Shown piece after piece: positions 5,540 through 21,564 of a stretch of 32,000 bases of DNA. The stretch comes from Edaphobacter aggregans (lineage in GTDB: Bacteria; Acidobacteriota; Terriglobia; Terriglobales; Acidobacteriaceae). Numbering within the stretch: position 1 is the first letter of the stretch; the number at the start of each line of letters is the position of its first letter. The stretch spans positions 1,260,001-1,292,000 of the forward strand of contig NZ_RSDW01000001.1 in assembly GCF_003945235.1 (NCBI RefSeq), written 5' to 3'. Below the pieces are notes generated by a model. That model was not told the DNA's origin. It saw nothing but the letters and a program-made list of their open reading frames with translations, and made no database searches. The translations under genes and the position numbers were made by a program.

Positions 5540-5615
5540 GAGAGCGTAGCTCAGTTGGTAGAGCATCGCCCTTTTAAGGCGTTGGTCCTGGGTTCGAGCC
5601 CCAGCGCTCTCACCA
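5540..5615 (+). tRNA. tRNA-Lys (anticodon UUU), CCA encoded
   Basis: Manual cloverleaf, 76 nt. Acceptor GAGAGCG/CGCTCTC; D arm GCTC-AGTTGGTA-GAGC; anticodon arm TCGCC-CTTTTAA-GGCGT; variable loop TGGTC; T arm CTGGG-TTCGAGC-CCCAG; then A-CCA. Confidence 0.95.
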
Positions 5616-5616
5616 T
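5565..5616 (+). repeat. attL: 52-bp direct repeat (3' part of tRNA-Lys)
   Basis: ATCGCCCTTTTAAGGCGTTGGTCCTGGGTTCGAGCCCCAGCGCTCTCACCAT is identical to 21513-21564. Confidence 0.9.
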
Positions 5617-5655
5617 AAAATCAGTAACTTACAAGCACAACTAAAACCACAAAAA

Positions 5656-5699
5656 CCATCGGGGATACAAAAGGGATACTTCACTGGATACCCCGATGG
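5656..5699 (+). promoter_or_regulatory. Hairpin carrying three GGATAC repeats; candidate integrase arm-type sites (P' arm) and possible tRNA terminator
   Basis: The stem CCATCGGGG (5656-5664) pairs with CCCCGATGG (5691-5699). GGATAC occurs at 5663, 5673 and 5686. The 19-mer GGGATACAAAAGGGATACT (5662-5680) is repeated at 21368-21386. Confidence 0.5.
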
Positions 5700-5737
5700 A
5701 CTCTTTTCCTCCCATAGTTTCCACGCCCACCATTTCC

Positions 5738-6462
5738 GGCATCCAACGAACCAGATAGACCTAGTAGTTCCTTGAGCCCTCATTCGGACGAGTGAGGGTC
5801 TTTTTTTGTTCCCCCTATTCCTGTCACTCTCGGCCCTGTAGCCACCCCACCGTGTCTACATCCACGCACGCCGTTAATGGCATCTAACCAACCAGAGATG
5901 GATCTAGTAGTTCCTTTTCGGACCCTCATTCGGGAAGAGTGAGGGTCGCTTTTTGTGCTCCCCTTCTGTTTTCCAAACTCATAGGCATCCAATCACTCTT
6001 TATGGTGCGTCAAAAAATCCGGCGCACTTTTGAGGTCGCCTTCGGTTGTAGGTCGTGAAGAGCCCTCAACCTGACCAAAGTGCGCCACCCCTCCATATGA
6101 ACGTCATGGCTTTCGGAAGAGATGAAAGCCTTTGCCCGTAGGTTGCAGCCCATGCCGCACCGTGTCTACATCCAAGCAGATAGACCAGGCATCCAACAAA
6201 TCAGCAGAGCTAACCAGCTACAACCCTTTGAGACCCTCATTCGGATAGACGAGTGGGGGTCCTTTTTTGTGCCTTCTCCCACTCGATAGCATCTACATCC
6301 ACCCCACCAAATTCAGGCATCCAACGAACCAGATGGTGCAAAATGCTTTGCTTCTGAGGCCCTCACTCCGACGAGTGAGGGTTCTTTTTGCTCTGTTCAC
6401 TTTTCCGACACACAAGGCATCCAATCTTTCCACTGTGCGTCCTAAGAAAATAGGCGCACTTT
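5738..6462 (+). repeat. Array of six divergent sRNA-like modules (GGCATCCAA box, variable segment, GC hairpin, T tract)
   Basis: Units lie at 5738-5807, 5879-5954, 6188-6268 and 6316-6389 (hairpin CCCTCA..TGAGGG followed by T5-7). Two further units lie at 5984-6031 and 6416-6462 (hairpin GTGCG..CGCAC followed by T3-4). No credible ORFs are present. T tracts occur only on the + strand. Confidence 0.6.
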
Positions 6463-6587
6463 GATCTCTCCGGTCTAGGAAGTTGCTAACCACCCTAGCA
6501 GCCCCTACAAAGCGCCCCGCCCTCCCCCAGTCCCGGTACGAGGAACCAGGCCATGGCACTTGCGATACACTCTGCACATACCAAACC

Positions 6588-6890
6588 ATGCAGCCCACTA
6601 ACCTCATACTCATGCAGCCCGTCGTACGTCACCGCGTCTACGTCCATGTAACCCACGCTCCTCATCAGTATGGTGAGCACTTCACAGTCCGATATCTCGA
6701 AGAGGATCTAAAGACTCCTTTGGGGCGCATGTATAGGTACACCCGTATAGACCAAGTGAGGGAGATTCTGAAGCGTGCAGACTATGCGCCTGAGCAGTGG
6801 GGGAAGTTTGAGGAGGGGCTCCGTTGCCGTGGTGTGGGTGCGTGCTATTTGGATCTTAAGAGCGAGCAATATAAGAAGCTGAAGCGGTAG
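6588..6890 (+). CDS. Hypothetical protein (island cargo)
   Basis: ORF 6483-6890. The first in-frame ATGs are at 6588 and 6612. I recognise no motif. Confidence 0.45.
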   Translation: MQPTNLILMQPVVRHRVYVHVTHAPHQYGEHFTVRYLEEDLKTPLGRMYRYTRIDQVREILKRADYAPEQWGKFEEGLRCRGVGACYLDLKSEQYKKLKR

Positions 6891-6913
6891 ATTGAACGGA
6901 AGCACTAAAGATT

Positions 6914-7600
6914 TCAATCTGCAGATTGGCGGGAGCATGAACTGAGGCTTGCTCCCACCTTCAAGTGCTCGTTATCGGTCCATTGGCATATTTTCGTGTG
7001 CTTTATTTTCTTGTCCCTGTCGATGTACAGAATGCAGCCCGGAAAGAAGTAGACTGGATCGGCTTGCCCTTCATCCAACCTACGATACGCTTCAGTGGGG
7101 AAAGAATATGAGTCGCCCGGAAACACTATATCTCCGACCTTCAAAGGCATGATATCTCCCTCAAGGCGCGCGCAAACCTTATCAATCGCTGGGCGTATAT
7201 CAGTCCCCCCGTTGCCAATAACTAGATCCAAGGCAGGAACCACATTAAAGGCGGGAGAGTTTCCGAAATTTTTTACTTTAGCCGTTATCTCAATATCCAT
7301 AGAGCCACGGGGATCATCGACCAACTTGGAAATTGTTATTGGATCAGCCAGTCCAACCCACGGTCGCTGGGACATCTCAAATTCCTGTTGAGCTATTCTT
7401 GCCTGTGTTCGGGAAACACTGATGCTCATATAGAGGGCAACAAGTGCTAAGAGGCTTATAGCGGCAGCCACACCTGTAATCCAATTGAGGTGTTTAGCTG
7501 TCCTAAGCGTTGTCTCACGATTTTTCTTTTCCTCGTCGTATCTTTCATTGCCTTTGGATGAAGACTCGATTTGCACAGGAAGAGGGTTGGGTATTTTCAT
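6914..7600 (-). CDS. Single-pass membrane protein, unknown function
   Basis: The track ORF starts at a TTG (7684); the first ATG is 7600 (MKIPNPL...). It has a charged N-terminus, one TM helix (WITGVAAAISLLALVALYM) and a C-terminal domain of about 150 aa. Confidence 0.6.
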   Translation of the reverse strand: MKIPNPLPVQIESSSKGNERYDEEKKNRETTLRTAKHLNWITGVAAAISLLALVALYMSISVSRTQARIAQQEFEMSQRPWVGLADPITISKLVDDPRGSMDIEITAKVKNFGNSPAFNVVPALDLVIGNGGTDIRPAIDKVCARLEGDIMPLKVGDIVFPGDSYSFPTEAYRRLDEGQADPVYFFPGCILYIDRDKKIKHTKICQWTDNEHLKVGASLSSCSRQSAD

Positions 7601-7803
7601 CAGGGGTTCTTGGACTGAATTGGCTCGGGTGCCAGGCTGTTGCGGATGGCCTTCGTGGTGCTTCTCATGTCTCTTTTTGTTCAAGGGTCATATCCCTGCA
7701 TTTCGCGCACCTAAATCTATCGTGAAAGAGTCCCAAACGCTAGAGCCTAAATCGAGATGAAGACGCAGGCTCATGCTGCCCTTAGGAGTGGTAGGCTGTC
7801 GGC

Positions 7804-8097
7804 ATGGCGATCATCGACTGTAACGTTTACGTATATCGAGATCCTTCGTTTCCCAGCGCGACGATTTGGGTGGAAGCTGACGACGGGAGGGCATGGGTTA
7901 CTGCCGTTGGAAAACTCGGTTTGCTTCAGCATGAAGCGGTGAACTTACCTCATGAATTGAGACATAGTCCTCCATCGGACGTATTGGGTTCTCTCAAACC
8001 GATATACAAATTTCTTGGGAGTTACCCATTCGATGAAGAAGTGCTGGACAATACGTGGGATATCGACACACCGCCCAACATTGCGAAGACCAAATAA
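7804..8097 (+). CDS. Hypothetical protein
   Basis: A 97-aa ATG-started ORF lying between two minus-strand membrane-protein genes. I recognise no motif. Confidence 0.45.
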   Translation: MAIIDCNVYVYRDPSFPSATIWVEADDGRAWVTAVGKLGLLQHEAVNLPHELRHSPPSDVLGSLKPIYKFLGSYPFDEEVLDNTWDIDTPPNIAKTK

Positions 8098-8187
8098 ATG
8101 TGCGGGCCGCTATTACAGACGCACAGACAAACAGAAGATTGCCGAAGCCTTCCACGTTGCATTGGGTTAAACTCCGCCAAACGGGAA

Positions 8188-8760
8188 TCACCTCGGAGGA
8201 GGGGTCCTCACTACGTGACCTTTATTCGCATCGGAATACCAATAGAAATGTCCGTTGGTTTGTCTTTTGGCTTTGTAGGGGAAGCTTTTAAAGCGTCTCC
8301 AGTGAATTATAGGGATACGATATTCCACCATGATCGCCAGTTCTGCGCTCAGTAAAGGTCCGAGTTGATCTGGCCAGACTTCGTTCAAAGCAACTTCAAA
8401 TTTTTCGTCCGTACCTAAGTCACGCGGGTGCCATTCCTCCGACCCCATTGCCGCGTAATCCTCAGAACTCTCATAGGTAGAGGAACGATTCGGGTCTCCA
8501 TACGTAATTTTGCCCAAGCCGAACGATGGTCGAACTGAAGTCAATGGTAGGTGTCCATTATTTGTGACCGTGACGGATGCCGAAAACGGGTTATTTGGGT
8601 CAACGGGATCGGAGATGGAGACGGTAACCCCAGGCCAAAAAGCCCACAATGCAATGACCCCAATGACTAGGCTAGTGACTCCAATCCAAATCCCCAGGTG
8701 TGCAAGACGCTTGGCCTTTCTAGCCTCTGATTCTCTTTGAAGTTGTTTCTTGGTGGTCAT
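8188..8760 (-). CDS. Single-pass membrane protein, unknown function; same architecture as 6914-7600
   Basis: ATG start. It has a basic N-terminus (MTTKKQLQRESEARKAKR), a TM helix (LGIWIGVTSLVIGVIALWAFW) and then a beta-rich-looking domain. Confidence 0.6.
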   Translation of the reverse strand: MTTKKQLQRESEARKAKRLAHLGIWIGVTSLVIGVIALWAFWPGVTVSISDPVDPNNPFSASVTVTNNGHLPLTSVRPSFGLGKITYGDPNRSSTYESSEDYAAMGSEEWHPRDLGTDEKFEVALNEVWPDQLGPLLSAELAIMVEYRIPIIHWRRFKSFPYKAKRQTNGHFYWYSDANKGHVVRTPPPR

Positions 8761-8878
8761 CGTGTTCCCGCCATCATTTCACACAAGAGTTTTCCACACA
8801 GCAAAAAATAAAATCTGTATACACAAACATTCGTTAGTGATTTTATCTGATCATGAGCTTGTCGAGATGGAGTGACCC

Positions 8879-9094
8879 ATGAAGTACCGCGAGAGTTGGG
8901 AACTGCCTAGCATTCCTAATGAAGTCTTCTGGCCTGAGGTCGGACGCAGAAGAAACGAGATAGCGAGTGGAGGCAGGCCAAAGACACTTCGGGACTGTGA
9001 ATACTGCGGACAACAGTACAGCGCCAGGGAGATGCGAAAACATAAGCCTCTATGTCCAAAGGGGCCTAACAAGAAAACCAAGAAAGGAAAATGA
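8879..9094 (+). CDS. Small putative zinc-ribbon protein with a basic tail
   Basis: 71 aa, containing CEYCGQQYSAREMRKHKPLC and a KKTKKGK tail. It is the first gene of a tightly packed three-gene + strand set. Confidence 0.45.
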   Translation: MKYRESWELPSIPNEVFWPEVGRRRNEIASGGRPKTLRDCEYCGQQYSAREMRKHKPLCPKGPNKKTKKGK

Positions 9095-9098
9095 ACCA

Positions 9099-9374
9099 AT
9101 GAAAGCAAGCAAGACTTCTGCCTCTAGCTCTTTCACCAACAACCACGTTTTCTCTGAGGCTGTCAGCCACAACCTACACCTCACCGCTTTTGTAGGGATT
9201 CGACTTCACGAGACCACCGAGTTCCTATACAAACTCAAGATGGAAACAGACGGTAAACCTTTCAGCAAGCGGAACGCGAACAGGATCAACCAGCTTGAGG
9301 TTGAGATTAAGAAGTACAAGCGTCAATTGGAAGAGGCAATGGCAGCAACAAAGCTGATGGAGGTGGCAGCATGA
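9099..9374 (+). CDS. Small coiled-coil protein
   Basis: The in-frame ATG at 9099 lies 5 nt after the previous stop. The C-terminus is heptad-like (INQLEVEIKKYKRQLEEAMAATKLME). The longer track ORF from 8967 would overlap the previous gene. Confidence 0.45.
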   Translation: MKASKTSASSSFTNNHVFSEAVSHNLHLTAFVGIRLHETTEFLYKLKMETDGKPFSKRNANRINQLEVEIKKYKRQLEEAMAATKLMEVAA

Positions 9375-9589
9375 GCATTGTTCTTATCAAAACTGTTGCC
9401 GATGACGTTATTAGCGATTATTTCTCTGGTGATCCGACGAACTGCCCACCAATACCAGAGGTAGGACACTTCATTGAGGGTTCATTTGGTAAGGGCCAAG
9501 TCAGCAAGGTGGAACACATTGTTGACTCATCCCTGTACACAATCAACTTGCATTTCACGAACACTGAACGTTATTACGACGCCAGCTAG
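9371..9589 (+). CDS. Hypothetical small protein
   Basis: ATGA start/stop overlap with the previous gene. A hairpin follows at 9612-9646. Confidence 0.45.
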   Translation: MSIVLIKTVADDVISDYFSGDPTNCPPIPEVGHFIEGSFGKGQVSKVEHIVDSSLYTINLHFTNTERYYDAS

Positions 9590-9611
9590 ATAACCCTTAA
9601 ACACAACAACT

Positions 9612-9658
9612 CCCCCACCGAGCCTCAATGAGAGATCAGGTGGGGGCATTGTGTTGCT
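9612..9658. terminator. Hairpin element A (CCCCCACC..GGTGGGGG followed by CATTGTGTTGCT); homolog of 10892-10934
   Basis: An 8-bp GC stem with loop GAGCCTCAATGAGAGATCA, 22 nt after the stop of 9371-9589. Confidence 0.5.
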
Positions 9659-9749
9659 CATGATCAATACTGCTCAGACCCTTGCTTGCGACAAAGCGTA
9701 GGATTGTCGAATATCAGGCGTAACACTTCCCTTTCTTATTCAAGAATTA

Positions 9750-9779
9750 GACCTTCTCCCCAGGAGGTCATTCTTTTTT
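9750..9779 (+). terminator. Rho-independent terminator, + strand
   Basis: GACCTTCT-CCCC-AGGAGGTC followed by ATTCTTTTTT. The T:G pair in the stem is tolerated only in a + strand RNA. Confidence 0.55.
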
Positions 9780-9796
9780 GCCTGAGTCTTTAAACA

Positions 9797-9841
9797 CAAA
9801 AAAATGGCTCCTACCACCCGATTAAGGATGATAGGAGCCAT
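9797..9841 (-). terminator. Rho-independent terminator, minus strand
   Basis: A perfect 10-bp stem, ATGGCTCCTA/TAGGAGCCAT. On the minus strand it is followed by T7-8 (the A run at 9797-9804). It lies downstream of gene 10007-10498. Confidence 0.6.
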
Positions 9842-10006
9842 TGTTGTTCCATAGTGAATCTATAGGGCAAATTCGCGCACAGTGTTCACGTACGCCTCTA
9901 GTATCAGGTGCCAGAGGGTTTCACTCACATGCCCTAAAAGTTGCACTCAGGGATTCTTCCAGCGATATACTGGTTGAACTACGACAAAGAAACGGGCATC
10001 CGAGTG

Positions 10007-10498
10007 CTAACGATAATGACCAATCATTTCTGAAACTGTGTTGTTTGTCATTCCCTCCACCGAACCATAGGTGAGCAGTATTCCTCTCTCTCCGCAGTCG
10101 ATGAAGACCCGATTCATCTTTGTGTCCGGCGAAGCCATTGGAGCGTGTGAGATTGTGCATTTCGTGGCTCCTTGGTCAATAAGAGCGGTAAGAGCGTCCA
10201 TCACCGAAGGCAGGCCATCTGATTCATGTAGCCAATTTCGGTCGGCATATACCAACTTATTGTTCACGAATTTCAAGGTGTAAATTCGCTTCGTTTGCAC
10301 ATCTACGGCTATTACCGGACTGTCTGAATTGGGCTTGTCGGGGAAGATCAGGCCGGAGGCTTCAATATTCTGTTTAGCTGTCGCCTTGTCCATACCCAGC
10401 CATACAGTTGCCGAGCCGAGTTGTAGTGAAATACCGTGATTAGATTGAGCGAATGCACTAAACGTACATAAAGCGACCAAAGATATGAGACTCTTCAT
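10007..10498 (-). CDS. Secreted protein of unknown function
   Basis: Signal peptide MKSLISLVALCTFSAFAQS; 163 aa. Confidence 0.6.
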   Translation of the reverse strand: MKSLISLVALCTFSAFAQSNHGISLQLGSATVWLGMDKATAKQNIEASGLIFPDKPNSDSPVIAVDVQTKRIYTLKFVNNKLVYADRNWLHESDGLPSVMDALTALIDQGATKCTISHAPMASPDTKMNRVFIDCGERGILLTYGSVEGMTNNTVSEMIGHYR

Positions 10499-10562
10499 TG
10501 CTGGTTGTCCTTTGGGTGCATTCTATCGTGGCAGGTGGGGTGTTTTCCTTATACTCATAGGG

Positions 10563-10868
10563 ATGAAAAAGCCCAATGAACCGAAGCGGTGCTGGCGTAT
10601 TCGCGGGTACGATAGCCTAACCCTGATATTCGATCAGAGCGTTCCCACTGGACAGCTAACCGAAGGCAACATGAAAGAACTGCTCCGTGCCCTCGTCGCG
10701 AAGGATCTGTTACCAAGCGAGCTTATCGGTGCGTATGCGAGACGAGGCACAAAGATACACAATCGGTTTTTAGAGATTCAAAAAGAGAACTTGCCTGAGA
10801 AAAGACGTGTCCTCTACACCTGTGGTGAAAATCCTTACTACACAGCAGATGTAGAAGTGTGCGATTAG
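10563..10868 (+). CDS. Hypothetical protein
   Basis: ORF 10485-10868. The likely ATG is 10563 (MKKPNEPKRCW...). It is divergent from 10007-10498. Confidence 0.45.
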   Translation: MKKPNEPKRCWRIRGYDSLTLIFDQSVPTGQLTEGNMKELLRALVAKDLLPSELIGAYARRGTKIHNRFLEIQKENLPEKRRVLYTCGENPYYTADVEVCD

Positions 10869-10882
10869 TTCCAAGGTCCCCC

Positions 10883-10934
10883 AAAAAATGAGCCCCACCA
10901 CCTCAATGAAGAGATGATGGGGCATTGTGTTGCT
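10883..10934. terminator. Bidirectional terminator, hairpin element B
   Basis: An A6 run (10883-10888), then the stem GCCCCACCA/TGATGGGGC with one mismatch, then CATTGTGTTGCT. It sits between the convergent genes 10563-10868 (+) and the capsid gene (-). Confidence 0.6.
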
Positions 10935-10982
10935 ATCAGGTTGTGTGCAGACTGGTTGATCTGGAGACTGCCTGATTAGCTA

Positions 10983-12200
10983 TTAGGTTGCGGACATAAC
11001 CAGCCGAATCATAGAAGGCGAAGAGGTCTGAATCGTGCTATATCCACCCGCACGCTGTACAGCGAAAAACGCTGTAGCGTTGTATTCCAGGTACCGATCC
11101 ACACTCTTACGTACGACGAGCGGACCCGCCTGACGATAGGTATACGACTTGTAAGCATCGCCCAGAAGGATTGGAGACTTCGATGCGCCCAGATCGTCAA
11201 TCTTCTGAGCGATACGGATGGGCAATCCAAGGAACGACTTGAACGGGTTCCCCTGAAAGTCAGTGGTCAGGATTGGACGGTTCTGGGAGTCCTTGATATC
11301 AAGCAGACTTGCCCAAGTACGCGAGTTCATCCACAGAGCGGCCCCTGCGAGGTAACTTGGGTCGAGCTTCGCGTAGAAATTGATAAGGGTGTCGTACGAT
11401 ATGGTGCTAGCGCCACCAGTAGGTGCGGTATAACCAACTGGAGTAGCAGTAGCCAACGACTGGAAGTTAGAAGCATTACCTGCGATGATTGCTTCGCTGG
11501 CAGTGTTCACCCAAGCCGTATTGATGGTTTCGCTAAGGAACTGCTCAATCGAGAACGCACTGTCCTGAATCAGTTGGTTGCTTACCTTTGTCATCAAGGT
11601 CAGCGTATCGACGTTGGAGGTGAATCCACCTACGCTAGGATCAGTTTCCGTGGCGGCCGTATTCTCTGGATTCAGCGTGAAGCGAACCGCTGTCGGATCT
11701 GCCGTACCCACCTTAATTCCTTCACCCGAATCAGTATTCCAAGTGCGTACACCCGAAAGAATCTCTCCAGTTGCCTTCGTCGCAGTGTGGAGAAGTGGAT
11801 CAAATCCTACGGGCACAAGCACGCCAGCAGCACCGCCCACGGTCATGTCACGCTGTTCATACTTCAGATACTCGCGGTCCTCAGGCTTCAACTTGCCAGT
11901 GATGTAGTTAGCGAATGCACGCATTTCCAGCCTGCTACGCTTCTCATCTACAACACCGTCAATCTGGTCCGCATCCTCTGCGATTGGTCCACGGGGTGGC
12001 CGACTGGAGTGACGCTGTTCTGCCTCAATAGCGGCTGCACGCTCCTCAACATCAATTCGTTCATGAATAAGCTGGGAGTCCTCAATCATCTTTCGTGCGG
12101 ATGCACGATCCTCTCTCGATACGCCATCCTTTGCGAGGATCGCCTGTGCATCGTATACAAGCTTGTTCTTCTGTTCACGCAACGTATTCAAATTCGACAT
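10983..12200 (-). CDS. Major capsid protein, HK97 family, with an N-terminal delta (scaffold) domain
   Basis: 405 aa. The N-terminal ~100 aa are coiled-coil and charged; the remainder is a typical HK97-fold sequence (..GGAAGVLVP.., ..LPIRIAQKIDDLG.., ..AFFAVQRAGG..). It follows the prohead protease gene. Confidence 0.9.
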   Translation of the reverse strand: MSNLNTLREQKNKLVYDAQAILAKDGVSREDRASARKMIEDSQLIHERIDVEERAAAIEAEQRHSSRPPRGPIAEDADQIDGVVDEKRSRLEMRAFANYITGKLKPEDREYLKYEQRDMTVGGAAGVLVPVGFDPLLHTATKATGEILSGVRTWNTDSGEGIKVGTADPTAVRFTLNPENTAATETDPSVGGFTSNVDTLTLMTKVSNQLIQDSAFSIEQFLSETINTAWVNTASEAIIAGNASNFQSLATATPVGYTAPTGGASTISYDTLINFYAKLDPSYLAGAALWMNSRTWASLLDIKDSQNRPILTTDFQGNPFKSFLGLPIRIAQKIDDLGASKSPILLGDAYKSYTYRQAGPLVVRKSVDRYLEYNATAFFAVQRAGGYSTIQTSSPSMIRLVMSAT

Positions 12201-12359
12201 ATTATTCTTAGCCTTTCGTAGCTAGGTAGGGCACAAGACATCCACATAGGCACACAAAGGCGTGCGTCTGGGTCCAGGCGATAAATTGTTAGGTGGGTAT
12301 AGAGAGCACACACAACTTGGTTGAGTGTCTGTGCTGGTGTTGCGTAAGTTGTAAAAGGG

Positions 12360-13097
12360 TTATTTCAGCTTGAGGATTTGAACCTGCATCCTGAGCTTCC
12401 AGAGTTCTTCATCAGCCTTATTGAGAATGCTTCTGTCCTCGTTCTGTGCAGGACAACCGTTCACTCTGCACGCTGGATCTTCGCAGTCTGAGTCCAGGCA
12501 TTGGCTGCAATCGCCAGCAACGCACATCAAGCAATCGCAATCACAGCCATCTTCGTTGCTACGCTTGGCCAACAGGCTTCTCAGTTCCTTTGGGCAGGAT
12601 CTGACATCAACCTGAGTTTGGAGGTACGCGGGGTTAGCCGTAACGGTAAGCTCTGTTAGCTCTAAAGCCTCAACAGTTCTTATCGCCGTGCCCTTGTCAT
12701 CCTTCCACGAATCTCGCGTGCAATAGAATCCAAACGAGCAACCTGCCGTGTCGCCACGTTCAATCGAAATAGCAAGATCGTTTGCATACGATTGCCGCGT
12801 ATCAATCGGACAAGTGAAGCTGACTCCCTTTGAATCAGTTGTGAGCCTTAGATTGCCTGCACGAGTCGAGCCTAAAATCTGCCCACTGTCATGGTTGTGA
12901 AGGAGCAGAACGTTCTTACCGCTATTGAGTGTGTCAGTCACAGCATCAGGCGAAATCACTTCTCTGAAGTTGCCTAAATCCTGACTGCGTTGATTGAACA
13001 CAATTGCACGGCCTGATAACGTCCTCTTTCCATCTGCGGCCGGTTTGGAGATTCGTAACTCCTCTACTGGCAGATGGCGAAGTTCTTTGTTATTCAT
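12360..13097 (-). CDS. Prohead serine protease (HK97/S78 family) with a Cys-rich C-terminal insertion
   Basis: Motifs GRAIVFN, LLLHNHD and GCSFGF fit the HK97 protease His/Ser region. Its ATG overlaps the portal stop by 8 nt. Confidence 0.85.
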   Translation of the reverse strand: MNNKELRHLPVEELRISKPAADGKRTLSGRAIVFNQRSQDLGNFREVISPDAVTDTLNSGKNVLLLHNHDSGQILGSTRAGNLRLTTDSKGVSFTCPIDTRQSYANDLAISIERGDTAGCSFGFYCTRDSWKDDKGTAIRTVEALELTELTVTANPAYLQTQVDVRSCPKELRSLLAKRSNEDGCDCDCLMCVAGDCSQCLDSDCEDPACRVNGCPAQNEDRSILNKADEELWKLRMQVQILKLK

Positions 13098-14391: not shown

Positions 14392-14404
14392 TTCTTGTTT
14401 TGTC

Positions 14405-14908
14405 CTATTCTGGTTTCGGGTGAGTGTGCGGCCAGCGTTCGTGGAAGTGTTCATCCAGTTCCCGCATCTCCTGCTCAAACTCATCCCAACGCTTTTCTTC
14501 CTCAGTTCGTGTGTCTGAATCAGGCTTAGGATTGGGGCTGGATGCGGGAGTATTAATGCCATCAGCAACGCCACCTTTGAACGCCTCTAGCAAACTGATA
14601 AGCTTCGTCATCTCTGCACTCTTCAGACCATCCGTTCTAAGCTTCACTGTCAGCTTCACAGCAACCTCAACCAGAAGCCTGTCCGAATGACTGAGAGCAG
14701 GAGATTGCTTGACAATTTCTGCCCATACCTTCTTTTCGTCGGCAGTCAAATGGGCGGGGGCTCTACCGATGGCAGCAGTCGGAGGTTTTGCAGATTGTGC
14801 CGCCTGTGCCGCCATCTCAGCCTCGATTCTGGCCTTATAGCGGCCTTTATTTTGCTGATAGGTTCCACTAAGCATGAGTTCTTGAATGGTCTTGCGAGGT
14901 GTTGGCAT
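14405..14908 (-). CDS. Terminase small subunit, P27-like
   Basis: The N-terminus MPTPRKTIQELMLSGTYQ and the segment APAHLTADEKKVWAEIV...LSHSDRLLVEVAV resemble the P27 TerS family. An AAGGAAG Shine-Dalgarno lies 7 nt upstream of the ATG. The gene sits immediately upstream of portal. Confidence 0.7.
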   Translation of the reverse strand: MPTPRKTIQELMLSGTYQQNKGRYKARIEAEMAAQAAQSAKPPTAAIGRAPAHLTADEKKVWAEIVKQSPALSHSDRLLVEVAVKLTVKLRTDGLKSAEMTKLISLLEAFKGGVADGINTPASSPNPKPDSDTRTEEEKRWDEFEQEMRELDEHFHERWPHTHPKPE

Positions 14909-14967
14909 TTGCTAACTTCCTTCGGTCTTTTGCGTCTAAATTTGCAGTAACACTTTCACTTTTCCGC

Positions 14968-15013
14968 GACCATCCGAGCCCAAACAACGTTGAGGCTGGA
15001 TGGTCATTTTTTT
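14968..15013 (+). terminator. Strong + strand rho-independent terminator, antisense to the terS leader
   Basis: GACCATCC(G)AGCC pairs with GGCTGGATGGTC (12 bp with one bulge), followed by ATTTTTTT. There is no T tract on the minus strand. Confidence 0.6.
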
Positions 15014-15693
15014 GATGAGTGGTTTAGACCGAAATGCGACTCGTGGCTAGTCTCGGAACCTTAAGGCTTCAAGTATTTACCCACCCCTATTGCACTTTTC
15101 CAGCAACTTGCGAGAGGACTCCTATTGCGTAGTCTCTGGAAGAGCTGCCCCATTTTGACGCACGCCACGTTGCCGTCACAACACTACGGCAAACTCGACA
15201 TCATGAGGTGTTTACGAATGCCGGTGAAGACAAGTTGGTGCTAGAATTGTCCGCTTTTCAATAGTGAAAGCAAGGGCCGCGCAGTTAAATCCAAAACAAG
15301 CGAGGCATGTATATGGGTTTTATTCTTTGCATATTTTACGGCGGGAAGATGCACTGTCATCCGATCCCAATTTATGAAATTCCAATAACCCTCGTGCACG
15401 GACCAGGTCCTGTAAATTACCAGCCGTTGATTCACGATTTAACTCTGGTAGCCTCGATTCAGGCCGCAGCAAATAAAGTACAAGATAAAAAGGTGGGTGC
15501 TGCCTTGAGCCAAGGAATACAAGAGGCTGTGAAGGCCATCCAAGCTCGTGCCGGTGAAGGCATTGAGATCAAGGCCATACAAGCCAAAGGCCAGTAAGCG
15601 TGAAAAGGGCGGGAGGGTTTGCGCTCAACCGTCCTTTGTCACCGAGATGACGGGGTTGAAAGAACGCCCTGATTGAAGTCAAGCGAAATCCTG

Positions 15694-16164
15694 TTAGCTT
15701 CCGGCACTTAACGTCACAGGCCCACTGATCTTGAGTTTCACACTCCAACCCACAGCTTTGCTGGTGTCAACGCTGATGTCACGACTCTGCACCAATGCAC
15801 TGAAGCCATAGGTATCCCCCACGGTTGTTTGTCCAGCTTGCACGTTGATCGGAAGAACCAACTTAAAGTCATATTTGAGACCAGATGCGAACGCTGCCTC
15901 TACTGCAACCTGCCCAGCGTCAGAGGCTACGCGATTACCACTAATGTCTAGTGTGCCGTTATCCCTCATCGTGGTGATGAATTCAGAATCAGCCCCTGAC
16001 TGGAAGTTAGATACATCGTCTGTGGACCACTGAGCCCCAGAGATACCAGACGATTTAATTTCTCCAATCGTTACGAACGTGGGAGACCCACCTGCTCCAG
16101 TGACACCACCAATGCTGAGAGATGAACCGCGACCTGCCTGAGCCCTGCTGCCCGTGTATGACAT
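15694..16164 (-). CDS. Phage tail tube (major tail) protein-like
   Basis: 156 aa. The pattern G.SLSIG....F..IGEIKS..G....DV.....S..EFI....D.G.L.......Q......G....F.L.LP......F.A.V.S......VKLKISG.VT matches remembered siphovirus tail-tube (TTP) families. AAGGAG lies 8 nt upstream of the ATG. Confidence 0.55.
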   Translation of the reverse strand: MSYTGSRAQAGRGSSLSIGGVTGAGGSPTFVTIGEIKSSGISGAQWSTDDVSNFQSGADSEFITTMRDNGTLDISGNRVASDAGQVAVEAAFASGLKYDFKLVLPINVQAGQTTVGDTYGFSALVQSRDISVDTSKAVGWSVKLKISGPVTLSAGS

Positions 16165-16221
16165 TTACTGCTCCTTAAATGTTGAAAGCCACCTGTGAGG
16201 GTGGCTGTTGATTAATGCTGC

Positions 16222-16605
16222 TCATGCTCGGTCCCAGAAATCAATCCATAGTCGTCTTGTGCGTGGAGTGTGTAGGATCTGGTACCTGCCTGCCAAGGTT
16301 CCCGTACTTCGACCAGGAATCTCGTTGAACTCAATTAGTTCTGCATCTGCCAATTCGTTACGTGCTGCCACAAACTCGGATGCGTTCATATACTTCTTTT
16401 GCATCAGTTTGGAATCTGGAAAATTTCTGCGAGTCACTCCCCAAAACAACATTGTGTTCGCAATATATCCATAGAGGCGTTTTGCTGCCACAGATAACTT
16501 GTCTTGGTGTTCAATACTCAGAAGTTCTTGCGGTCCAAGGTGCTTAAACGGGATCGGTAGATGTTCAGCGTCGTTATAGTTTGTCATTGGTTCTAATGCC
16601 TTCAT
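16222..16605 (-). CDS. Hypothetical protein, possible winged-helix DNA-binding domain
   Basis: The segment AAKRLYGYIAN...MNASEFVAARNELADAELIEF looks wHTH-like (weak). The start is uncertain: 16650, 16605 or 16587. Confidence 0.45.
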   Translation of the reverse strand: MKALEPMTNYNDAEHLPIPFKHLGPQELLSIEHQDKLSVAAKRLYGYIANTMLFWGVTRRNFPDSKLMQKKYMNASEFVAARNELADAELIEFNEIPGRSTGTLAGRYQILHTPRTRRLWIDFWDRA

Positions 16606-16684
16606 GGAATTTGGATGAAGCCAGCGAGAAGGAGCGCAGGTCGTGGACAATCAACCGCGCATTCAACTTGTGTGGAGAAAAAAA

Positions 16685-16816
16685 GAATGGGTGCAGGAGC
16701 ACTTAACCTGATCTTGCGAATCGAATCGCTACCGAGGGAACTACCTGACCAAACCAGTTGGTCAATCGGCTGCCCATCTAAGGGCTAGATTCAGGAGAGT
16801 GCGTCACTGCACCCAT
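16685..16816. other. 132-nt extended stem with internal hairpins: candidate structured RNA or DNA cruciform
   Basis: AATGGGTGCAG (16685-95) pairs with CTGCACCCATT (16806-16). GCACT (16698-702) pairs with AGTGC (16797-801). CCTGA (16706-10) pairs with TCAGG (16790-94). An inner hairpin pairs TGACCAA (16745-51) with TTGGTCA (16757-63). Confidence 0.4.
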
Positions 16817-17029
16817 TTAAGGGTGGGCTATGTCAGGCCCGAACAGCACGTTTGAAAGAAGGGAGCGTAACCACCCGAGAGAACGTGCTGCCCATGAACG
16901 AACAAACCACGGAAAGGTCACCAAAGAGAATGAGGCTCTTTGGATATGAAACGCAGTTGTGTTCGGTCAATCTTGTTATTAATAATCTTTTATGCTGCTT
17001 TTCCTTGCCGGCATTACTTGCACCACGGT

Positions 17030-17566
17030 TTAGGTCTCTGGAAAGTTCAGATAGGCGTATTCGCCGTGTAGCTCTTTGGCTACCTTGTCGTAGGCTTTCG
17101 CTGCCTCTATCTCTGTCATGTGACGGCCTAACCACTTCATTACGCCGTTGACTCTGATATGTGCCGCCCATTGCTTTGTGTGCCAGGGATCTATTCCTGA
17201 AACACCCTTGTACCTTGAATTCTGTCTAGGTGTGCATTTCTTCCAGGCCGCCTGCTCCTTGGTTCCGACCAGCAGATTAGACTTTCTGCAATCCAGAGTG
17301 TCAGGGGTCCGATGGAACACCGTCATGCTGTCCGGAGGATTCATCAGGAAACGATGGAGCAGAATCGCTGACTGTTTACCGCCTGTTCGGTAGACGTTGG
17401 CACGGAAATATACAGTCCCGTTTCTTTCCTTGTGAGCGTGCCAGTTGTGTTCTGCCACTCTGTCCACGTCCTCAAGGTCAATCAGCACATGGAACTGACC
17501 GAGCTTGCCAGTGATAACCAGAACAGCTTCGTCATTCTTAACAAGAACCGAACTCATGGGAACCAT
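17030..17566 (-). CDS. HNH-like / AP2 domain DNA-binding protein
   Basis: The N-terminal part is HNH_3-like (LLHRFLMNPPDSMTVFHRTPDTLDCRKSNL; the usual DNR is DCR). The C-terminal part is an AP2 domain (SRYKGVS...WAAHIRVNG...LGRHMTEIEAAKAYDKVAKELHGEYAYLNFP). The track start is a TTG; the first ATGs are at 17566 and 17557. Confidence 0.75.
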   Translation of the reverse strand: MVPMSSVLVKNDEAVLVITGKLGQFHVLIDLEDVDRVAEHNWHAHKERNGTVYFRANVYRTGGKQSAILLHRFLMNPPDSMTVFHRTPDTLDCRKSNLLVGTKEQAAWKKCTPRQNSRYKGVSGIDPWHTKQWAAHIRVNGVMKWLGRHMTEIEAAKAYDKVAKELHGEYAYLNFPET

Positions 17567-18209
17567 TGAAAACAGGCTGGAAGATTTACAAATTTCGCCA
17601 AAGAATCTCAAGGTTAGCAGATTGGGTTTAAGTTGTTAACTCTTGTGTTTTCAGTCTTTATATTCTTGTTATTAACAGGGTTGTTAGAGTATGGACGCAA
17701 TGATGGTTAACCCCCATCGTTTTGAACATGCTGTGTGACACGCATGGACTATAACGAGCACTGGTTTAACTAGACAGGGTTGAAAGTCTTGACTGCCATC
17801 AAGATCATCTGGGGCCTAAATTTACGGTCTCTAGTGGGATGTGCACCCTAACCCAACCGCCTAGTCCTCACGGCTCTAGGATTCGTCCGTCGTCTATTAC
17901 CGGACACCTGCGTTGCTTATCAGACAACGGCTTTAGCCATCCAATGTGCAATGATTGCACTCCAGACAACTGGCACCACTGGGGTATCGTTAGAATCCCG
18001 TGGGAACATCTTCATCATTCAGTTTCAGATTGCCCACGGCTTCTGACGGTTGTTCAGAGTTCTGCCATGTGTGGGGTCTGTCTGTTTGGCTTTCATGAGG
18101 AAGAGGAATTATTCTCTCTACCCCTTACATAGATATAGAACTGTCACACTTGTCCAAAATGCATCCAAACCCGAAAATTAAATGAAAATACTTCAATTTA
18201 TTTTCGATA

Positions 18210-18252
18210 GAGGGCAGAATCCTTTGTCACGTATTGCAAGGATTCTGCCCTC
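18210..18252 (-). terminator. 15-bp perfect hairpin downstream of the sigma-like gene
   Basis: GAGGGCAGAATCCTT-N13-AAGGATTCTGCCCTC, starting 26 nt after stop 18278. The U tract is weak. Confidence 0.5.
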
Positions 18253-18277
18253 ATCTCATTGATTAGTCAGGGGCAGC

Positions 18278-19333
18278 TTAGGCACTGGGAAGCCACTTCA
18301 GCTTTACCCTCATCCGCTCCACACGCTTGCGAACAGTAGCGGGGTTCATTCCCAGCCCCTTGGCAATCTCTGCACAGTTGGAGCCTGCCTGTAGCTGGTT
18401 GGCAATCAGCCGATTGGTTCCTGTGACCCAATCAGGCAACTTCTCTACCGTCTTGAGGTCAGGAGGTTGAACATAGCGAGAGGCTGGATGGTGGCGTTCT
18501 TCATCATGAATATATTGCCTGATGACATCTGGATGTTCCTCTTCTTCACCAAACTCAGTCTCAACCAAAAAAGGAACCATGCCGGCGTAATTTGCATTGA
18601 TCTCCCGTTTGGCATCACATCCAACCGTGTGGCAGATTGTTGTAAGCCAGGCGCAGAAATCGCCGGGTCCACCAACAAACTTATTGAGACCGTTGCAGAC
18701 TTTCATGGCTACTATCTGCGAGTAATCATCTTCATCTTTGAATGCGTCAGGCAAACCGTGGATTGCACCTTTGATCTTCTTCTTAGCAAAATCAATGACA
18801 CAATCAAGCAAATATTCCCCGGCTATTTCATGGGCGTTATTTTCAGTTACAAACGGGTCGATGAAGTTTGCATACGCCTTCTCAATCCCGTCTTTGTTGC
18901 GACGGTACTGAATTGCTTCTAGGCTGTTCCCTCTACCATCCCCAGTATCGAGCCAGGATTGCTCAGGGGCGTCTTCTGAGTCTTCAATGGGCTCTGAGTA
19001 CCCTGATTTCGTGATAGGGCATCCAGGTGACATTGTTGTAGGGAATGGATTACGCCTGATCGTTTCAATGTAGACACGCCGTTCTGTGCAGGCTGGTTCG
19101 ATGTAACCGCACTGCTCAGGGAAGCTGACGTACAACGTCTTGCGGGGTCTCTTGGTGCCAACGATGGAGTCATAACGAGCCGCTGTCTTCTGCATCAGTT
19201 CCGGCCACCATGCCATTGTTTGGTCTGCCTTGGTCCTGTGGTCTGGTGTCCAGTTGTGTTCAGGCTGTGGGAAGAAGTCGCTGGGGATAGTCCTTGGTCG
19301 GCATGTGGGAATTGCTTTATGAGCTGCGGCCAT
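18278..19333 (-). CDS. ECF-type sigma-70-like protein with an N-terminal extension of about 160 aa of unknown function
   Basis: Region-2-like DYSQIVAMKVCNGLNKFVGGPGDFCAWLTTICHTVGCDAKRE. Region-4-like LPDWVTGTNRLIANQLQAGSNCAEIAKGLGMNPATVRKRVERMRVKL. Its ATG overlaps the upstream stop (TAATG). Confidence 0.6.
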   Translation of the reverse strand: MAAAHKAIPTCRPRTIPSDFFPQPEHNWTPDHRTKADQTMAWWPELMQKTAARYDSIVGTKRPRKTLYVSFPEQCGYIEPACTERRVYIETIRRNPFPTTMSPGCPITKSGYSEPIEDSEDAPEQSWLDTGDGRGNSLEAIQYRRNKDGIEKAYANFIDPFVTENNAHEIAGEYLLDCVIDFAKKKIKGAIHGLPDAFKDEDDYSQIVAMKVCNGLNKFVGGPGDFCAWLTTICHTVGCDAKREINANYAGMVPFLVETEFGEEEEHPDVIRQYIHDEERHHPASRYVQPPDLKTVEKLPDWVTGTNRLIANQLQAGSNCAEIAKGLGMNPATVRKRVERMRVKLKWLPSA

Positions 19334-19635
19334 TAGTCCTGTTCCTCAACTGAGCAGAGGCTTGCGTGAGGAGTCCTAGCGAATTTCTGAAGGGCAGATG
19401 GAAGGAACATAACTTTACTTCCATGTCGCACAGAGTCGAGAAGGCCGTTGGCCACACACGCATCCAAAGTTCTTAACGAGACACTCAAGGCAAATGCGGC
19501 TGATCGACGGTCATAAAGAAACTTCGGAACTGCTGGTTTGTCAGTGAGATAGGTGTTATCTGCGCTGGCGTGAATGGTGTCAATAATGCCAGCCATAGGG
19601 ACAGGCATAGCAATAGATTCAATAGAATCAATCAT
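19333..19635 (-). CDS. Excisionase/AlpA-like helix-turn-helix protein
   Basis: RRSAAFALSVSLRTLDACVANGLLDSVRHGSKVMFLPSALQKF resembles the Xis/AlpA (HTH_17) family. The track start is a TTG at 19698; ATG 19635 is preceded by AAGGA. Confidence 0.55.
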   Translation of the reverse strand: MIDSIESIAMPVPMAGIIDTIHASADNTYLTDKPAVPKFLYDRRSAAFALSVSLRTLDACVANGLLDSVRHGSKVMFLPSALQKFARTPHASLCSVEEQD

Positions 19636-19698
19636 TTGGAGATATTCCTTTGTATTTATTGGGTTTATTTCAAGGTAGAGATATCCTGTCCTCGGCAA

Positions 19699-20150
19699 GG
19701 CTCAGGGCCATTAGACACAGGCACAAGGCACAGGAGAGGCAGCATATCCATTATGGATAGTTAATAGTGAATAGACTAAGTGTTTGAATCTAAAACGGTT
19801 ACGTGTTTGTGGTTTCTATAAGTGTCCTTGGTTTTTTAGTATTATCCTTTGTTTTGAGCTATTTACAGTAATGATGCTGTAAACACAACTCTCCCCACAT
19901 CTCATTTAAAGGTGTACACTAATAATACGTTAGTGGGTTGACTTTTGTCAAGTACCGGCAAAGTGGAGGGAACAAACAAAAAAAAAGCCCAGAAACCGCC
20001 TTCAAGGTCAAAATAGTTCAATTTATTTCATGCCAGTGCGCTCGGATGCTGTTCCCTGCTCATTATCCCCATACACATATAGGTGGTAAAAGTGACCTAA
20101 ATCCTCTGACACGAACAGAAAAATAAGTTCATTCTGCCTTCTTCCTGCCT
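19699..20150. promoter_or_regulatory. AT-rich control region between int and the xis-like gene, with several palindromes
   Basis: TATCCATTATGGATA at 19745-19759 (7-1-7). TTTACAG-N8-CTGTAAA at 19862-19883. CACTAA-N7-TTAGTG at 19917-19935. TTGAC-TTTT-GTCAA at 19938-19951. Confidence 0.4.
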
Positions 20151-21332
20151 CTACTTCTCAAGCTGTCTGAGCCCTTCCATTGCTAACCGCATGGTCTTCT
20201 CGTTCAGGTGGATGTATCGGGCTGATGTTTGGGCTGACTTGTGACCGGCTGCCTTCATGATGACGAACGCATTCGCGCCGTTCTCAGCCAACCGTGTGCA
20301 GAAACTGTGCCGCAGATCATGCCAGCGGAAATTCTTAATCCTCGCCCGTCTGAGTGCAGAGGCAAACCATTTTTTATTATCTGCAATGGCAAAAACTAAA
20401 TCAGGAGCAGAATTGTTTGGCTTACCCGCTACTCTGCGCTTGCGATGAAGAGAGAGTGACTTGAGTCCTCGGAACGCCTTGAATACGTCTTCGTTCATGT
20501 AAACAACGCGATCCGTGTTTGTCTTCGTGTTGCGAACCATTATTTTCTTTTCTTCAAACTCAACATCTGGCCAGGGCAGACTGTACTGTTCACCCCGACG
20601 CAATCCTGCTCCAAGCGCAATGTCCAACTCGTAGATGTGGTGCTGTGCTCTCTCCTTCAGGGTCGTCTTCGTGGGTCCGCAGGCGTCAACATCGGCCTGC
20701 AGAACTTTACGCAACCGCGCCTCTTCCTTTTCAGAGAGCGCCCTGATTACACCTTCACCCACTGGCTCGGATGCCACATCCCTAGCCGGATTGACGGAAA
20801 CCTTACCCTTCCGTATGCCATGCCGATACACACCTGAGAATGTCGTCTTGAGCCTGTTACGGGTCGCTGGAGCCCTGTCTATGTTCTCCAACCAATCGGA
20901 AATCTCATGCGCCTTCACCCCAGAGGCGATTCTGCTCCCAAACTCTTTTTTGATTTGCCCTAGTCGTCTAGGTGGGTTCTCTTGGTCCTTGTACTTCTTG
21001 GGATTCTTCTGGATGTGGTTCAGCAAAAGGTCACAGAGGTGGGAAACCGTGACACCTGCTATTTCTGCCTCCACCTCGTCTTTTGTTCTCGCGGTTTGCT
21101 TGGCCGTCTCTGGAACAGAACCATTGCCAGACGAACGGATGTATCGAACCTTTTCCAAATAGGCAACAGCATCCTCCCTCCTGCCTATTCTCTTACGCAC
21201 CAGATGCCCGTGGAGGCGATAGCGGACGTACCAGATACCTGAGCCCTCATTCTTCTCGTAAACGCCTGCTACAGCCTTTCCTGTGCGTTTCTTTCTGGGT
21301 GCGGGGTGGGTGGGGTGGGTCATGGCAGTCAT
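20151..21332 (-). CDS. int: Tyrosine recombinase / phage integrase
   Basis: C-terminal catalytic motifs (LRRGE..., WHDLRHSFCTRLAENG, GHKSAQTSARYIHL). N-terminal arm-binding-like domain (GIWYVRYRLHGHLVRKRIG). The start is probably ATG 21332 (GGAGG upstream); the track ORF extends to 21407 over the arm-site repeat. Confidence 0.9.
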   Translation of the reverse strand: MTAMTHPTHPAPRKKRTGKAVAGVYEKNEGSGIWYVRYRLHGHLVRKRIGRREDAVAYLEKVRYIRSSGNGSVPETAKQTARTKDEVEAEIAGVTVSHLCDLLLNHIQKNPKKYKDQENPPRRLGQIKKEFGSRIASGVKAHEISDWLENIDRAPATRNRLKTTFSGVYRHGIRKGKVSVNPARDVASEPVGEGVIRALSEKEEARLRKVLQADVDACGPTKTTLKERAQHHIYELDIALGAGLRRGEQYSLPWPDVEFEEKKIMVRNTKTNTDRVVYMNEDVFKAFRGLKSLSLHRKRRVAGKPNNSAPDLVFAIADNKKWFASALRRARIKNFRWHDLRHSFCTRLAENGANAFVIMKAAGHKSAQTSARYIHLNEKTMRLAMEGLRQLEK

Positions 21333-21367
21333 GCAGAAGAGTCCTCCAGCCGCCATAATACCTGTCT

Positions 21368-21386
21368 GGGGATACAAAAGGGATAC
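21368..21386 (+). promoter_or_regulatory. Candidate integrase arm-type site (P arm)
   Basis: GGGATACAAAAGGGATACT is identical to 5662-5680 and in the same orientation. Confidence 0.5.
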
Positions 21387-21512
21387 TAATTTCCGATTAT
21401 GCTGCAACTCAATGCGCTGTATTGCTCATGAGGCTTCATTTTATACATCAATGTTTAGAGGGGTTTAATACGTATTGAGATGCATAAAGAGGCACTGTGT
21501 GTCAGCAATGTA

Positions 21513-21564
21513 ATCGCCCTTTTAAGGCGTTGGTCCTGGGTTCGAGCCCCAGCGCTCTCACCAT
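21513..21564 (+). repeat. attR: 52-bp copy of the tRNA-Lys 3' end (no 5' half, not a gene)
   Basis: Identical to 5565-5616. The upstream sequence GCAATGTA does not continue the tRNA. Confidence 0.9.

Follow-up and report, generated by a model that had tools for sequence, protein, structure and literature searches.

A probable helper-dependent, capsid-forming phage satellite integrated at a tRNA-Lys gene of Edaphobacter aggregans

We analyzed a 32,000-nt stretch of DNA from Edaphobacter aggregans (the window), in which an earlier note, made by reading the sequence, had proposed that a duplicated tRNA-Lys 3' end delimits an integrated element. The element, defined here as the 15.9-kb interval between two 52-nt cores, is almost certainly a genuine and recently mobile integrative element. 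The available evidence, all of it from sequence analysis, indicates that it is probably a helper-dependent, capsid-forming phage satellite resembling the class of phage-inducible chromosomal islands that form capsids (cf-PICIs). Since the element encodes its own head proteins and its own sigma factor and has no packaging motor or tail, it would most likely spread by borrowing from a helper phage.

Structural genes of the element

The recognizable structural genes are all encoded on the minus strand. The HK97-family portal protein (13090-14454; PF04860, E-value 3.5e-99) is 100% identical to a protein of 454 amino acids (aa) from E. aggregans in NCBI. It is accompanied by a prohead serine protease of family S78 (12360-13097; PF04586, 3.6e-41) and a major capsid protein of the HK97 fold (10983-12200; PF05065, 7.6e-39; phrog_10, 5.5e-40). 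The gene at 14405-14908 encodes a small-terminase-like protein, which itself gives weak matches (phrog_12559, 1.3e-3; phrog_83, 3e-3) and has homologs in sibling elements that match phrog_83 with E-values of 1.6e-6 and 1.8e-8, and Terminase_4 weakly. A tail-tube-like protein of the major tail protein family is encoded at 15694-16164 (phrog_158, 1.8e-13; Pfam Phage_tail_2, 7e-4). It is 39% identical to the product of the tube gene of a phage contig, L081, and in a sequence search of the PDB it returned a weak match to SPP1 gp17.1 alone. Among the elements studied, a tube gene was found in the window and in the sibling element L097 only, where the homolog lies directly upstream of the portal gene (phrog_158, 3.7e-14).

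No large terminase, tail assembly module or lysis genes were found in the 15.9 kb, which sets the element apart from a complete tailed prophage. No holin was seen in the element, and searches with Pfam and PHROGs detected no head-tail adaptor, connector or head-closure genes in it; the sibling L098 has an adaptor (Ad1), a head-closure protein (Hc1) and a tail terminator. The claim of the earlier note that the interval encodes phage-like or orphan proteins is thus borne out, and can be refined to a reduced set consisting of head genes and a small-terminase-like gene without a large terminase.

Two further minus-strand genes lie upstream of the tail-tube-like gene. The first encodes an orphan protein of 142 aa (16222-16650) without Pfam, PHROG or PDB match; the PDB sequence search with the small-terminase-like protein likewise returned no match. 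The second, situated close to the tail-tube-like gene, encodes an endonuclease with HNH_3 and AP2 domains (17030-17611; phrog_99, 1.3e-24; Pfam AP2, 1.9e-4, and HNH_3, 9e-3), for which tblastn found no match in the siblings. This domain combination is typical of homing endonucleases, and we speculate that a homing endonuclease may have carried neighboring phage DNA into the element.

A family of relatives without a large terminase

Eight relatives (L085, L091, L093, L094, L095, L096, L097, and L098) have the small-terminase-like, portal, protease and capsid genes in common and also lack a large terminase. The first seven carry the closest portals, with 47-79% identity to that of the window. 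In none of the eight does an open reading frame (ORF) of large-terminase size, or a called gene for such a protein, adjoin the portal gene, and tblastn with the large terminases of related phage contigs gave only E-values above 2 against the window, L085, L086, L091, L093, and L094. By comparison, the more distant phage contigs L082, L084, and L088-L090 (39-43% portal identity) each have an ORF of 562-573 aa directly upstream of the portal gene. In L082 and L084, the two that were checked, Pfam identified the ATPase and nuclease domains of a large terminase in this ORF. A 38-kb contig, L100 (IMG/VR UViG_3300048861_000251), is prophage-like, uses the same attachment (att) site between tRNA-Lys and hldD, and encodes an integrase with 41% identity. 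Its gene order is small terminase (34% identical to the small-terminase-like protein of the window), bona fide large terminase directly downstream (phrog_9, 4e-154), and portal. We regard L100 as a representative of a candidate helper lineage.

Five relatives for which the size could be mapped or estimated range from 13.6 to about 17.5 kb, and four of them are bounded by perfect tRNA-derived repeats. The integration targets differ within the family. The window element (15.9 kb) and L093 (~16.0 kb) are each found at tRNA-Lys with a 52-bp repeat, L085 (13.6 kb) at tRNA-Asn with a 48-bp repeat, L097 (16.1 kb) at tRNA-Arg with a 55-bp repeat, and L096 (14.7 kb) at a tRNA-like target with a 47-bp repeat. 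The cargo of the siblings is typical of satellites and includes Abi_alpha in L085 and HicB in L097.

To assess selection, we compared the portal and int genes of the window with those of L093, L094 or L091. The proportion of nonsynonymous differences (pN) was 0.17-0.19, versus a proportion of synonymous differences (pS) of 0.69-0.81, which is saturated; for int against L093 the values were 0.17 and 0.69. The low pN at saturated pS indicates that selection has maintained portal and int over a long period in which no large terminase was present. Gene order provides a second line of evidence. In the phage L081, the portal, protease and capsid genes are followed, in this order, by those for adaptor, head closure, tail terminator, and tube. 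In the satellites, the neck or tube cassette lies upstream of the small-terminase and portal genes (the tube gene in the window and L097; the adaptor, head-closure and tail-terminator genes in L098). Since the cassette is upstream in the satellites and downstream of the capsid gene in L081, the element is not a simple deletion derivative.

These observations bear on the alternative that the element is a decaying cryptic prophage, i.e., the immobile remnant of a once-complete HK97-like temperate phage from which deletions removed the large terminase, tail and lysis genes. Such a history would agree with the phage homology of every recognizable structural gene, with the use of the same att site by the full prophage-like contig L100, and with the absence from the window copy of the neck genes present in L098. 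It would also agree with the listing of E. aggregans with multiple predicted prophages in a survey where satellites were not separated (Eichorst et al., 2018; PMC5900883). However, the same lack of a large terminase recurs in eight independent relatives at no fewer than four integration sites and within the size range given above. Moreover, the ORFs are intact, the portal and int genes show strong purifying selection across saturated synonymous divergence, the gene order is rearranged relative to that of phages, the att cores match perfectly, and the same core is occupied by another family member in a near-identical strain (see below). A decaying prophage is therefore unlikely, and a capsid-forming satellite remains the preferred explanation.

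Integration site and turnover of its content

The integration target is an intact tRNA-Lys gene (UUU; anticodon TTT) at 5540-5615 on the plus strand, the sole tRNA found by both ARAGORN and Rfam (tRNA model, 71.2 bits). The left core (attL, 5565-5616) consists of the last 51 nt of this gene and one downstream base. It recurs on the plus strand at 21513-21564 (attR) as a displaced tRNA 3' fragment. A repeat finder and direct reading of both copies confirmed the 52-nt direct repeat with 100% identity and the same orientation that the earlier note had described at tRNA-Lys; a match of this length within 32 kb cannot have arisen by chance. As also noted earlier, the 5' half of the tRNA stands in front of the left copy alone, and the two copies already differ at the base immediately before the core (c at 5564, a at 21512).

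The interior had been described as visibly richer in AT, and the calculated GC content is indeed 0.492 in 5617-21512 versus 0.583 in the left flank and 0.570 in the right flank. This gap of 8-9 points shows that the composition is not that of the flanks. The flanks themselves carry housekeeping genes, as had been proposed: the left one encodes a BcsQ-domain protein, and the right one HldD, HldE, and a heptosyltransferase. The locus thus has the arrangement by which Islander recognizes an island in a tRNA gene (tDNA), namely an intact tDNA, downstream of it a displaced piece of the cognate 3' end with unchanged orientation, and an internal tyrosine integrase.

To compare the site with that of related bacteria, as the earlier note had recommended, species-representative genomes were scanned for HldD, and the window was aligned to the resulting 80 loci, the best of which came from Granulicella, Edaphobacter, and Tunturibacter. 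In five loci (L001, L006, L021, L022, and L024), the arrangement is bcs, tRNA-Lys, hldD, with a gap of 0.1-0.4 kb between the tRNA and hldD, and the bases directly 3' of the tRNA are identical to window positions 21565-21572 in L012, L014, and L024. The sequence of the island is absent from the empty loci. All of these belong to other species of Acidobacteriaceae, with ~75% nucleotide identity in the flanking genes, and no same-species empty site was found among the loci examined.

A closer comparison was provided by an 18.2-kb IMG/VR metagenomic contig (L098/L108) that carries a different member of the family at the same site. Its nucleotide identity to the window is 99.8% in hldD, 99.4% in the 515-bp intergenic flank, and 100% in the att core, and drops at precisely the boundary of the core to 73% for the P arm and 80% for int. 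Within the element, the portal and capsid proteins of L098 are 34 and 30% identical to those of the window, respectively, and the accessory genes differ. The combination of a near-identical strain flank with a different family member from the core onward indicates that the content of the site turns over by site-specific events, and this sequence pattern is what site-specific acquisition or replacement predicts. The reading of the interval as a mobile element is thereby supported, and the opposite picture, with the same content in all relatives and diverged repeats, is contradicted by both the empty sites and L098/L108.

The same data allow us to evaluate another alternative, in which the head module has been domesticated for use by the host, as a particle like a gene transfer agent (GTA) or as a protein compartment, and the integrase is a relic of its arrival. 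Purifying selection on head genes that have no packaging motor, together with the possession of a sigma factor by the element, would be compatible with domestication. On the other hand, the genes have no fixed locus and travel with integrases to at least three tRNA genes (Lys, Asn, and Arg) and to the tRNA-like target in L096, and the content varies between near-identical strains. In addition, the small-terminase-like gene and the arm-type sites, which co-vary with the integrase (see below), imply packaging and integration specific to the DNA of the element. We therefore consider domestication very unlikely compared with a mobile satellite.

The sibling L093 occupies the same tRNA-Lys/bcsQ site on a 239-kb metagenome contig, with its integrase (72% identity) at the distal end. 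At 3050-3254 of L093, the displaced tRNA fragment of this sibling island is called as a 73-nt tRNA-Lys by ARAGORN and scores barely above the Rfam threshold (30.9 bits). Just past this fragment lies GGGGATACAAAAGGGATACTTC, an arm-type site of the kind found on the P' arm of the window element. This suggests that a second element of the window type, or its remnant, is present in tandem in L093. In five other loci (L005, L016, L007, L008, and L010), tRNA-Lys and hldD are separated by 2.4-7.7 kb of unrelated DNA without a related integrase; in L010, the stretch that was fetched includes the tRNA 3' fragment only. The interval between tRNA-Lys and hldD in Acidobacteriaceae looks like a general insertion hotspot.

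Integrase, arm-type sites and a putative excisionase

The tyrosine integrase is encoded on the minus strand at 20151-21332 (Pfam Phage_integrase PF00589, 1.2e-24; phrog_1, 2.4e-50), in an ORF that extends to a TTG at 21407. The most likely start is the ATG at 21332, 181 bp inside the right core, in agreement with the distance of about 180 bp given in the earlier note. The integrase is 72% identical to that of L093 and 77-80% identical to that of L098 at the same site. The conserved arm-type repeats that had been noticed were also found: two copies of GGGATAC form the 20-mer GGGGATACAAAAGGGATACT, which occurs on the plus strand of the P' arm at 5661-5680, 45 nt after the left core, and in identical form on the plus strand of the P arm at 21368-21387, 145 nt before the right core. 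At equivalent positions, both arms of L093 have two copies of GGGTCAC, which indicates that arm sites and integrase have changed in concert. Because the int ATG is preceded by the P-arm sites at a distance of 37 bp, it is plausible that Int controls its own expression, probably by regulating its promoter.

The earlier note had singled out, as an unusual detail, that int sits at the far end from the intact tRNA. This location was correctly described and is a regular trait of the clade rather than an anomaly. The int gene lies at the attR end, which holds the tRNA fragment, throughout the integrase clade, i.e., in the window, L093, L098, L097 (51% identity), and L100, and adjoins the tRNA in L085, which has an unrelated integrase. 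The distal position reflects which side of attP is occupied by int, and there is no sign of rearrangement.

The 121-aa protein encoded at 19333-19698 on the minus strand matched no family in Pfam or PHROGs. Its homologs at the equivalent position in L093 (HTH_17, weak), L091, and L098 (excisionase family phrog_66, 8e-4) suggest that it is a small helix-turn-helix protein of the excisionase/AlpA type.

Sigma factor and candidate promoters

The 351-aa ORF at 18278-19333 on the minus strand (312 aa in the NCBI annotation) returned itself alone in a word-indexed homolog search. An exhaustive HMMER search recovered 89 remote homologs, many of them about 200 aa long with Sigma70_r2 and r4_2 domains, and the profile of this family matches structures of extracytoplasmic function (ECF) sigma factors over both domains with E-values of 6e-13 to 3e-8. 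In the AlphaFold2 model of the ORF, the predicted local distance difference test (pLDDT) exceeds 90 at about residues 100-230 and 265-310, and the top Foldseek matches are ECF sigma factors. On the basis of the profile and the model, the predicted product is an ECF-type (group 4) sigma factor with an N-terminal extension and with the sigma-2 and sigma-4 domains in one unit of ~200 aa. A homolog occupies the corresponding place in each of L091, L093, and L098, and L096 has a sigma-like candidate detected by a weak match to phrog_3282.

Two repeated boxes, AAATAAATTGAA(G/C)TATTTT, are present in the window at 18185-18203 and 20010-20028, and are candidate promoters for this sigma factor. In each element, a box peculiar to it, 20-50 nt long, is present two or three times upstream of gene blocks, and the boxes differ among elements. 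They were located at 7117, 7220 and 8019 in L085, at 2379, 2484 and 3421 in L095, at 4019, 4094 and 4728 in L096, at 2071 and 2686 in L094, and at about 6690 and 7300 in L093; the duplicated boxes of the siblings are 45-50 nt long. Differences of this kind between elements are as would be expected if the boxes were promoters, each set being read by the sigma factor of its own element.

Proposed life cycle

If the element is a satellite, its cycle might proceed as follows. A helper phage would probably provide the induction, upon which the element would be excised by Int and the excisionase-like protein as a circle in which 21512 is joined to 5617 across a single core. The element's own sigma factor would switch on the morphogenetic genes from the element-specific promoters, and the portal, protease and capsid protein would form a small head sized for ~16 kb. 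The small terminase of the element would mark its DNA and recruit the large terminase of the helper to fill those heads. Tube-like or neck proteins would then join the heads to helper tails, and the helper would lyse the cell. In the new host, Int would reinsert the DNA at tRNA-Lys and the tRNA gene would be regenerated.

Several points weigh against this interpretation. The assignment of the small terminase is weak, because the direct score of the protein is low (E ~1e-3) and the assignment comes mainly from its homologs and its position. The HNH/AP2 protein resembles a homing endonuclease more than an HNH protein of the packaging type. Among the ORFs tested, none matched a primase, helicase or Rep protein in Pfam or PHROGs, and no replication module was recognized. 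The window copy, without the adaptor and head-closure genes of L098, could be a defective or less complete member of the family. The model assumes that the portal of a satellite works with a foreign large terminase. Finally, an exact search of IMG/VR for the attP junction gave no match, and this sequence-only analysis revealed neither an excised circle nor packaged DNA nor a helper.

The orphan genes permit another alternative, that the element is a self-sufficient mini-virus, or moves by conjugative mobilization or natural transformation, with the relevant functions hidden among them. Orphan sequence without a family match takes up about one third of the element (5.6-10.9 kb), and no helper has been identified. 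Yet no orphan ORF is large enough for, or resembles, a large terminase, tail protein, relaxase, or coupling protein; the largest encodes a predicted membrane protein of 256 aa. This explanation is highly improbable, and we retain that of a helper-dependent satellite.

Non-coding region, terminal array and orphan cargo

A conserved non-coding region of ~560-570 nt separates the sigma factor gene from the structural genes (17612-18180, minus strand) and aligns with L094 (2041-2599) and L093 (6701-7238). It includes a hairpin at 18033-18075 with 14 pairs, five of which show compensatory changes and none of which is broken, as judged from three sequences only. An nhmmer search with the region found no homologs beyond L093 and L094. 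The alignment is suggestive only, and the region could be a structured leader, a non-coding RNA, or a cis-acting site for packaging or replication.

Just inside attL, a tandem array at 5700-6470 on the plus strand, delineated by a repeat finder and a motif count, comprises four modules of ~125 nt and two of ~75 nt. The motif GGCATCYAAY is present in all six modules (six matches versus 0.32 expected). Each of the four longer modules ends in a canonical intrinsic terminator, and the two shorter ones have a different hairpin. The adjacent gene at 6612-6890 aligns in its 5' part with the modules, and the array is absent from the sibling L093. In Rfam searches of the window at gathering and permissive thresholds, only the tRNA was matched, with no match for the array or the non-coding region. 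The modules look like degenerate tandem gene copies by their alignment, and may be transcribed as short terminated RNAs. The presence of four canonical terminators on the same strand and the homology to the 5' part of the neighboring gene make transcribed degenerate copies a better fit than iterons or a pac site. We also considered whether the array represents leftover ends of earlier insertions, which is unlikely as no extra tRNA fragments accompany the modules. The non-coding region after the sigma factor gene and the terminator-bearing array could together provide control at the RNA level, by a loose analogy with the RNA-based immunity of P4.

The gene at 6612-6890 on the plus strand encodes a small conserved protein ending in EQYxKLK, with tblastn matches at the equivalent position in L093 (two tandem copies on the minus strand, 18635-18868 and ~18100-18340) and L108 (16943-17155, minus strand). 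This family is thus found at the tRNA-proximal end of three elements of the integrase clade, and matched no known family. The remaining orphan cargo (6914-10868, both strands) was described from the ORF translations, and consists of predicted membrane proteins, a secreted-looking protein of 163 aa, and small ORFs. The predicted membrane proteins, of 256 aa (6914-7684, minus strand) and 190 aa (8188-8760, minus strand), have a common layout with a charged N-terminus, one hydrophobic segment, and a probable beta-rich domain. The cargo ORFs had no credible match in Pfam or PADLOC.

Significance

Acidobacteriota are among the most abundant soil phyla, and the virology of this phylum is young. To our knowledge, almost all catalogued phage satellites come from Proteobacteria and Firmicutes. 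Within the literature that we could search, the acidobacterial satellite family is previously undescribed, and the largest satellite survey mentions neither Acidobacteria nor sigma factors (PMC10085698). We tentatively propose, as a possibility somewhat short of even, that Acidobacteriota harbor a fourth, independently evolved lineage of capsid-forming satellites. Such a lineage would have dispensed with the large terminase and coupled a helper motor to a foreign portal, would use its own ECF-type sigma factor to drive morphogenesis, and would swap neck and tail-tube cassettes to fit helper tails.

If this is true, the family would be an added vehicle for gene flow and phage defense in a soil phylum, given the Abi and toxin-antitoxin cargo of the siblings. 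A sigma factor encoded by a satellite would be an unreported mode of control, and the question would arise of how the large terminase of a helper docks on a non-cognate portal. There is also a consequence for estimates of lysogeny. The survey of acidobacterial genomes considered any region bearing capsid, portal, or terminase genes a likely active prophage, and assigned several to E. aggregans (PMC5900883). Marker-gene criteria of this kind (capsid or portal) likely score elements such as the one described here as active prophages, and the resulting estimates of lysogeny would be inflated.

Comparison with known systems

In the best-known P4-type islands, int adjoins the intact tRNA. The clade of the window differs in that int lies at the attR end, with a promoter region that overlaps the P-arm sites. 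The Islander paper makes no statement on the position of int relative to the tRNA (PMC4383910). Apart from this, the element resembles the islands defined there in its intact tDNA, displaced 3' fragment, orientation, and internal integrase, and the tandem or serial tDNA occupation suggested in L093 is a further likeness.

The closest similarity is to the cf-PICIs. Like them, the element is a ~15-kb island with an integrase, next to which lies the gene for the putative excisionase/AlpA-like protein; it encodes a portal, a prohead protease and an HK97 capsid protein of its own and carries accessory cargo, without tail assembly or lysis genes; and its relatives appear to form a lineage distinct from that of the phages with homologous genes. 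Its candidate small terminase has a weak direct score, and its HNH gene has the domain architecture of homing endonucleases. The published cf-PICIs, of which EcCIEDL933 is the prototype, encode HNH, TerS and TerL proteins and need a helper for tails only (Alqurainy et al., bioRxiv 10.1101/2022.09.08.507074). Their definition comprises 11 core components, including terL, head-tail adaptor, connector and pri-rep, and the SatelliteFinder model forbids tail genes and holins (PMC10085698). Of these components, the integrase, portal, protease and capsid are present in the window. However, it has no large terminase, a core component of cf-PICIs, and no recognized primase-replicase; the adaptor and connector genes, which are present in the sibling L098, are absent from the window copy; and a gene of the tail-tube family, forbidden by the model, is present. 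The regulator is also different, being a predicted ECF-type sigma factor rather than AlpA, MerR or Stl, as is the host, since the published clades belong to Gammaproteobacteria and Firmicutes. Because it falls outside the core definition, we have not filed the element as a cf-PICI.

With the phage-inducible chromosomal islands (PICIs) of the type found in Staphylococcus aureus pathogenicity islands (SaPIs), the element would share the proposed logic by which a satellite small terminase redirects the large terminase of the helper, in addition to a size of ~15 kb and site-specific insertion by an integrase. The SaPIs differ in that they remodel helper capsid proteins, encode no portal or major capsid protein, and carry pri-rep and Stl-type repressors. 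The portal is a forbidden component of the PICI model (PMC10085698), and the presence of a portal in the window, together with the lack of a detected pri-rep, places the element outside the classical PICIs. The Streptomyces satellites MulchRoom and MiniFlayer are similar in that they themselves encode a capsid protein, a portal, a small terminase and an HNH endonuclease (PMC10690885). In contrast to the window element, they encode a large terminase (PMC10690885), occur in another phylum, and are related to different phages. With heads of its own and a borrowed motor, the element would stand between the SaPI-like satellites, which borrow all but the small terminase, and the cf-PICIs, which borrow tails alone.

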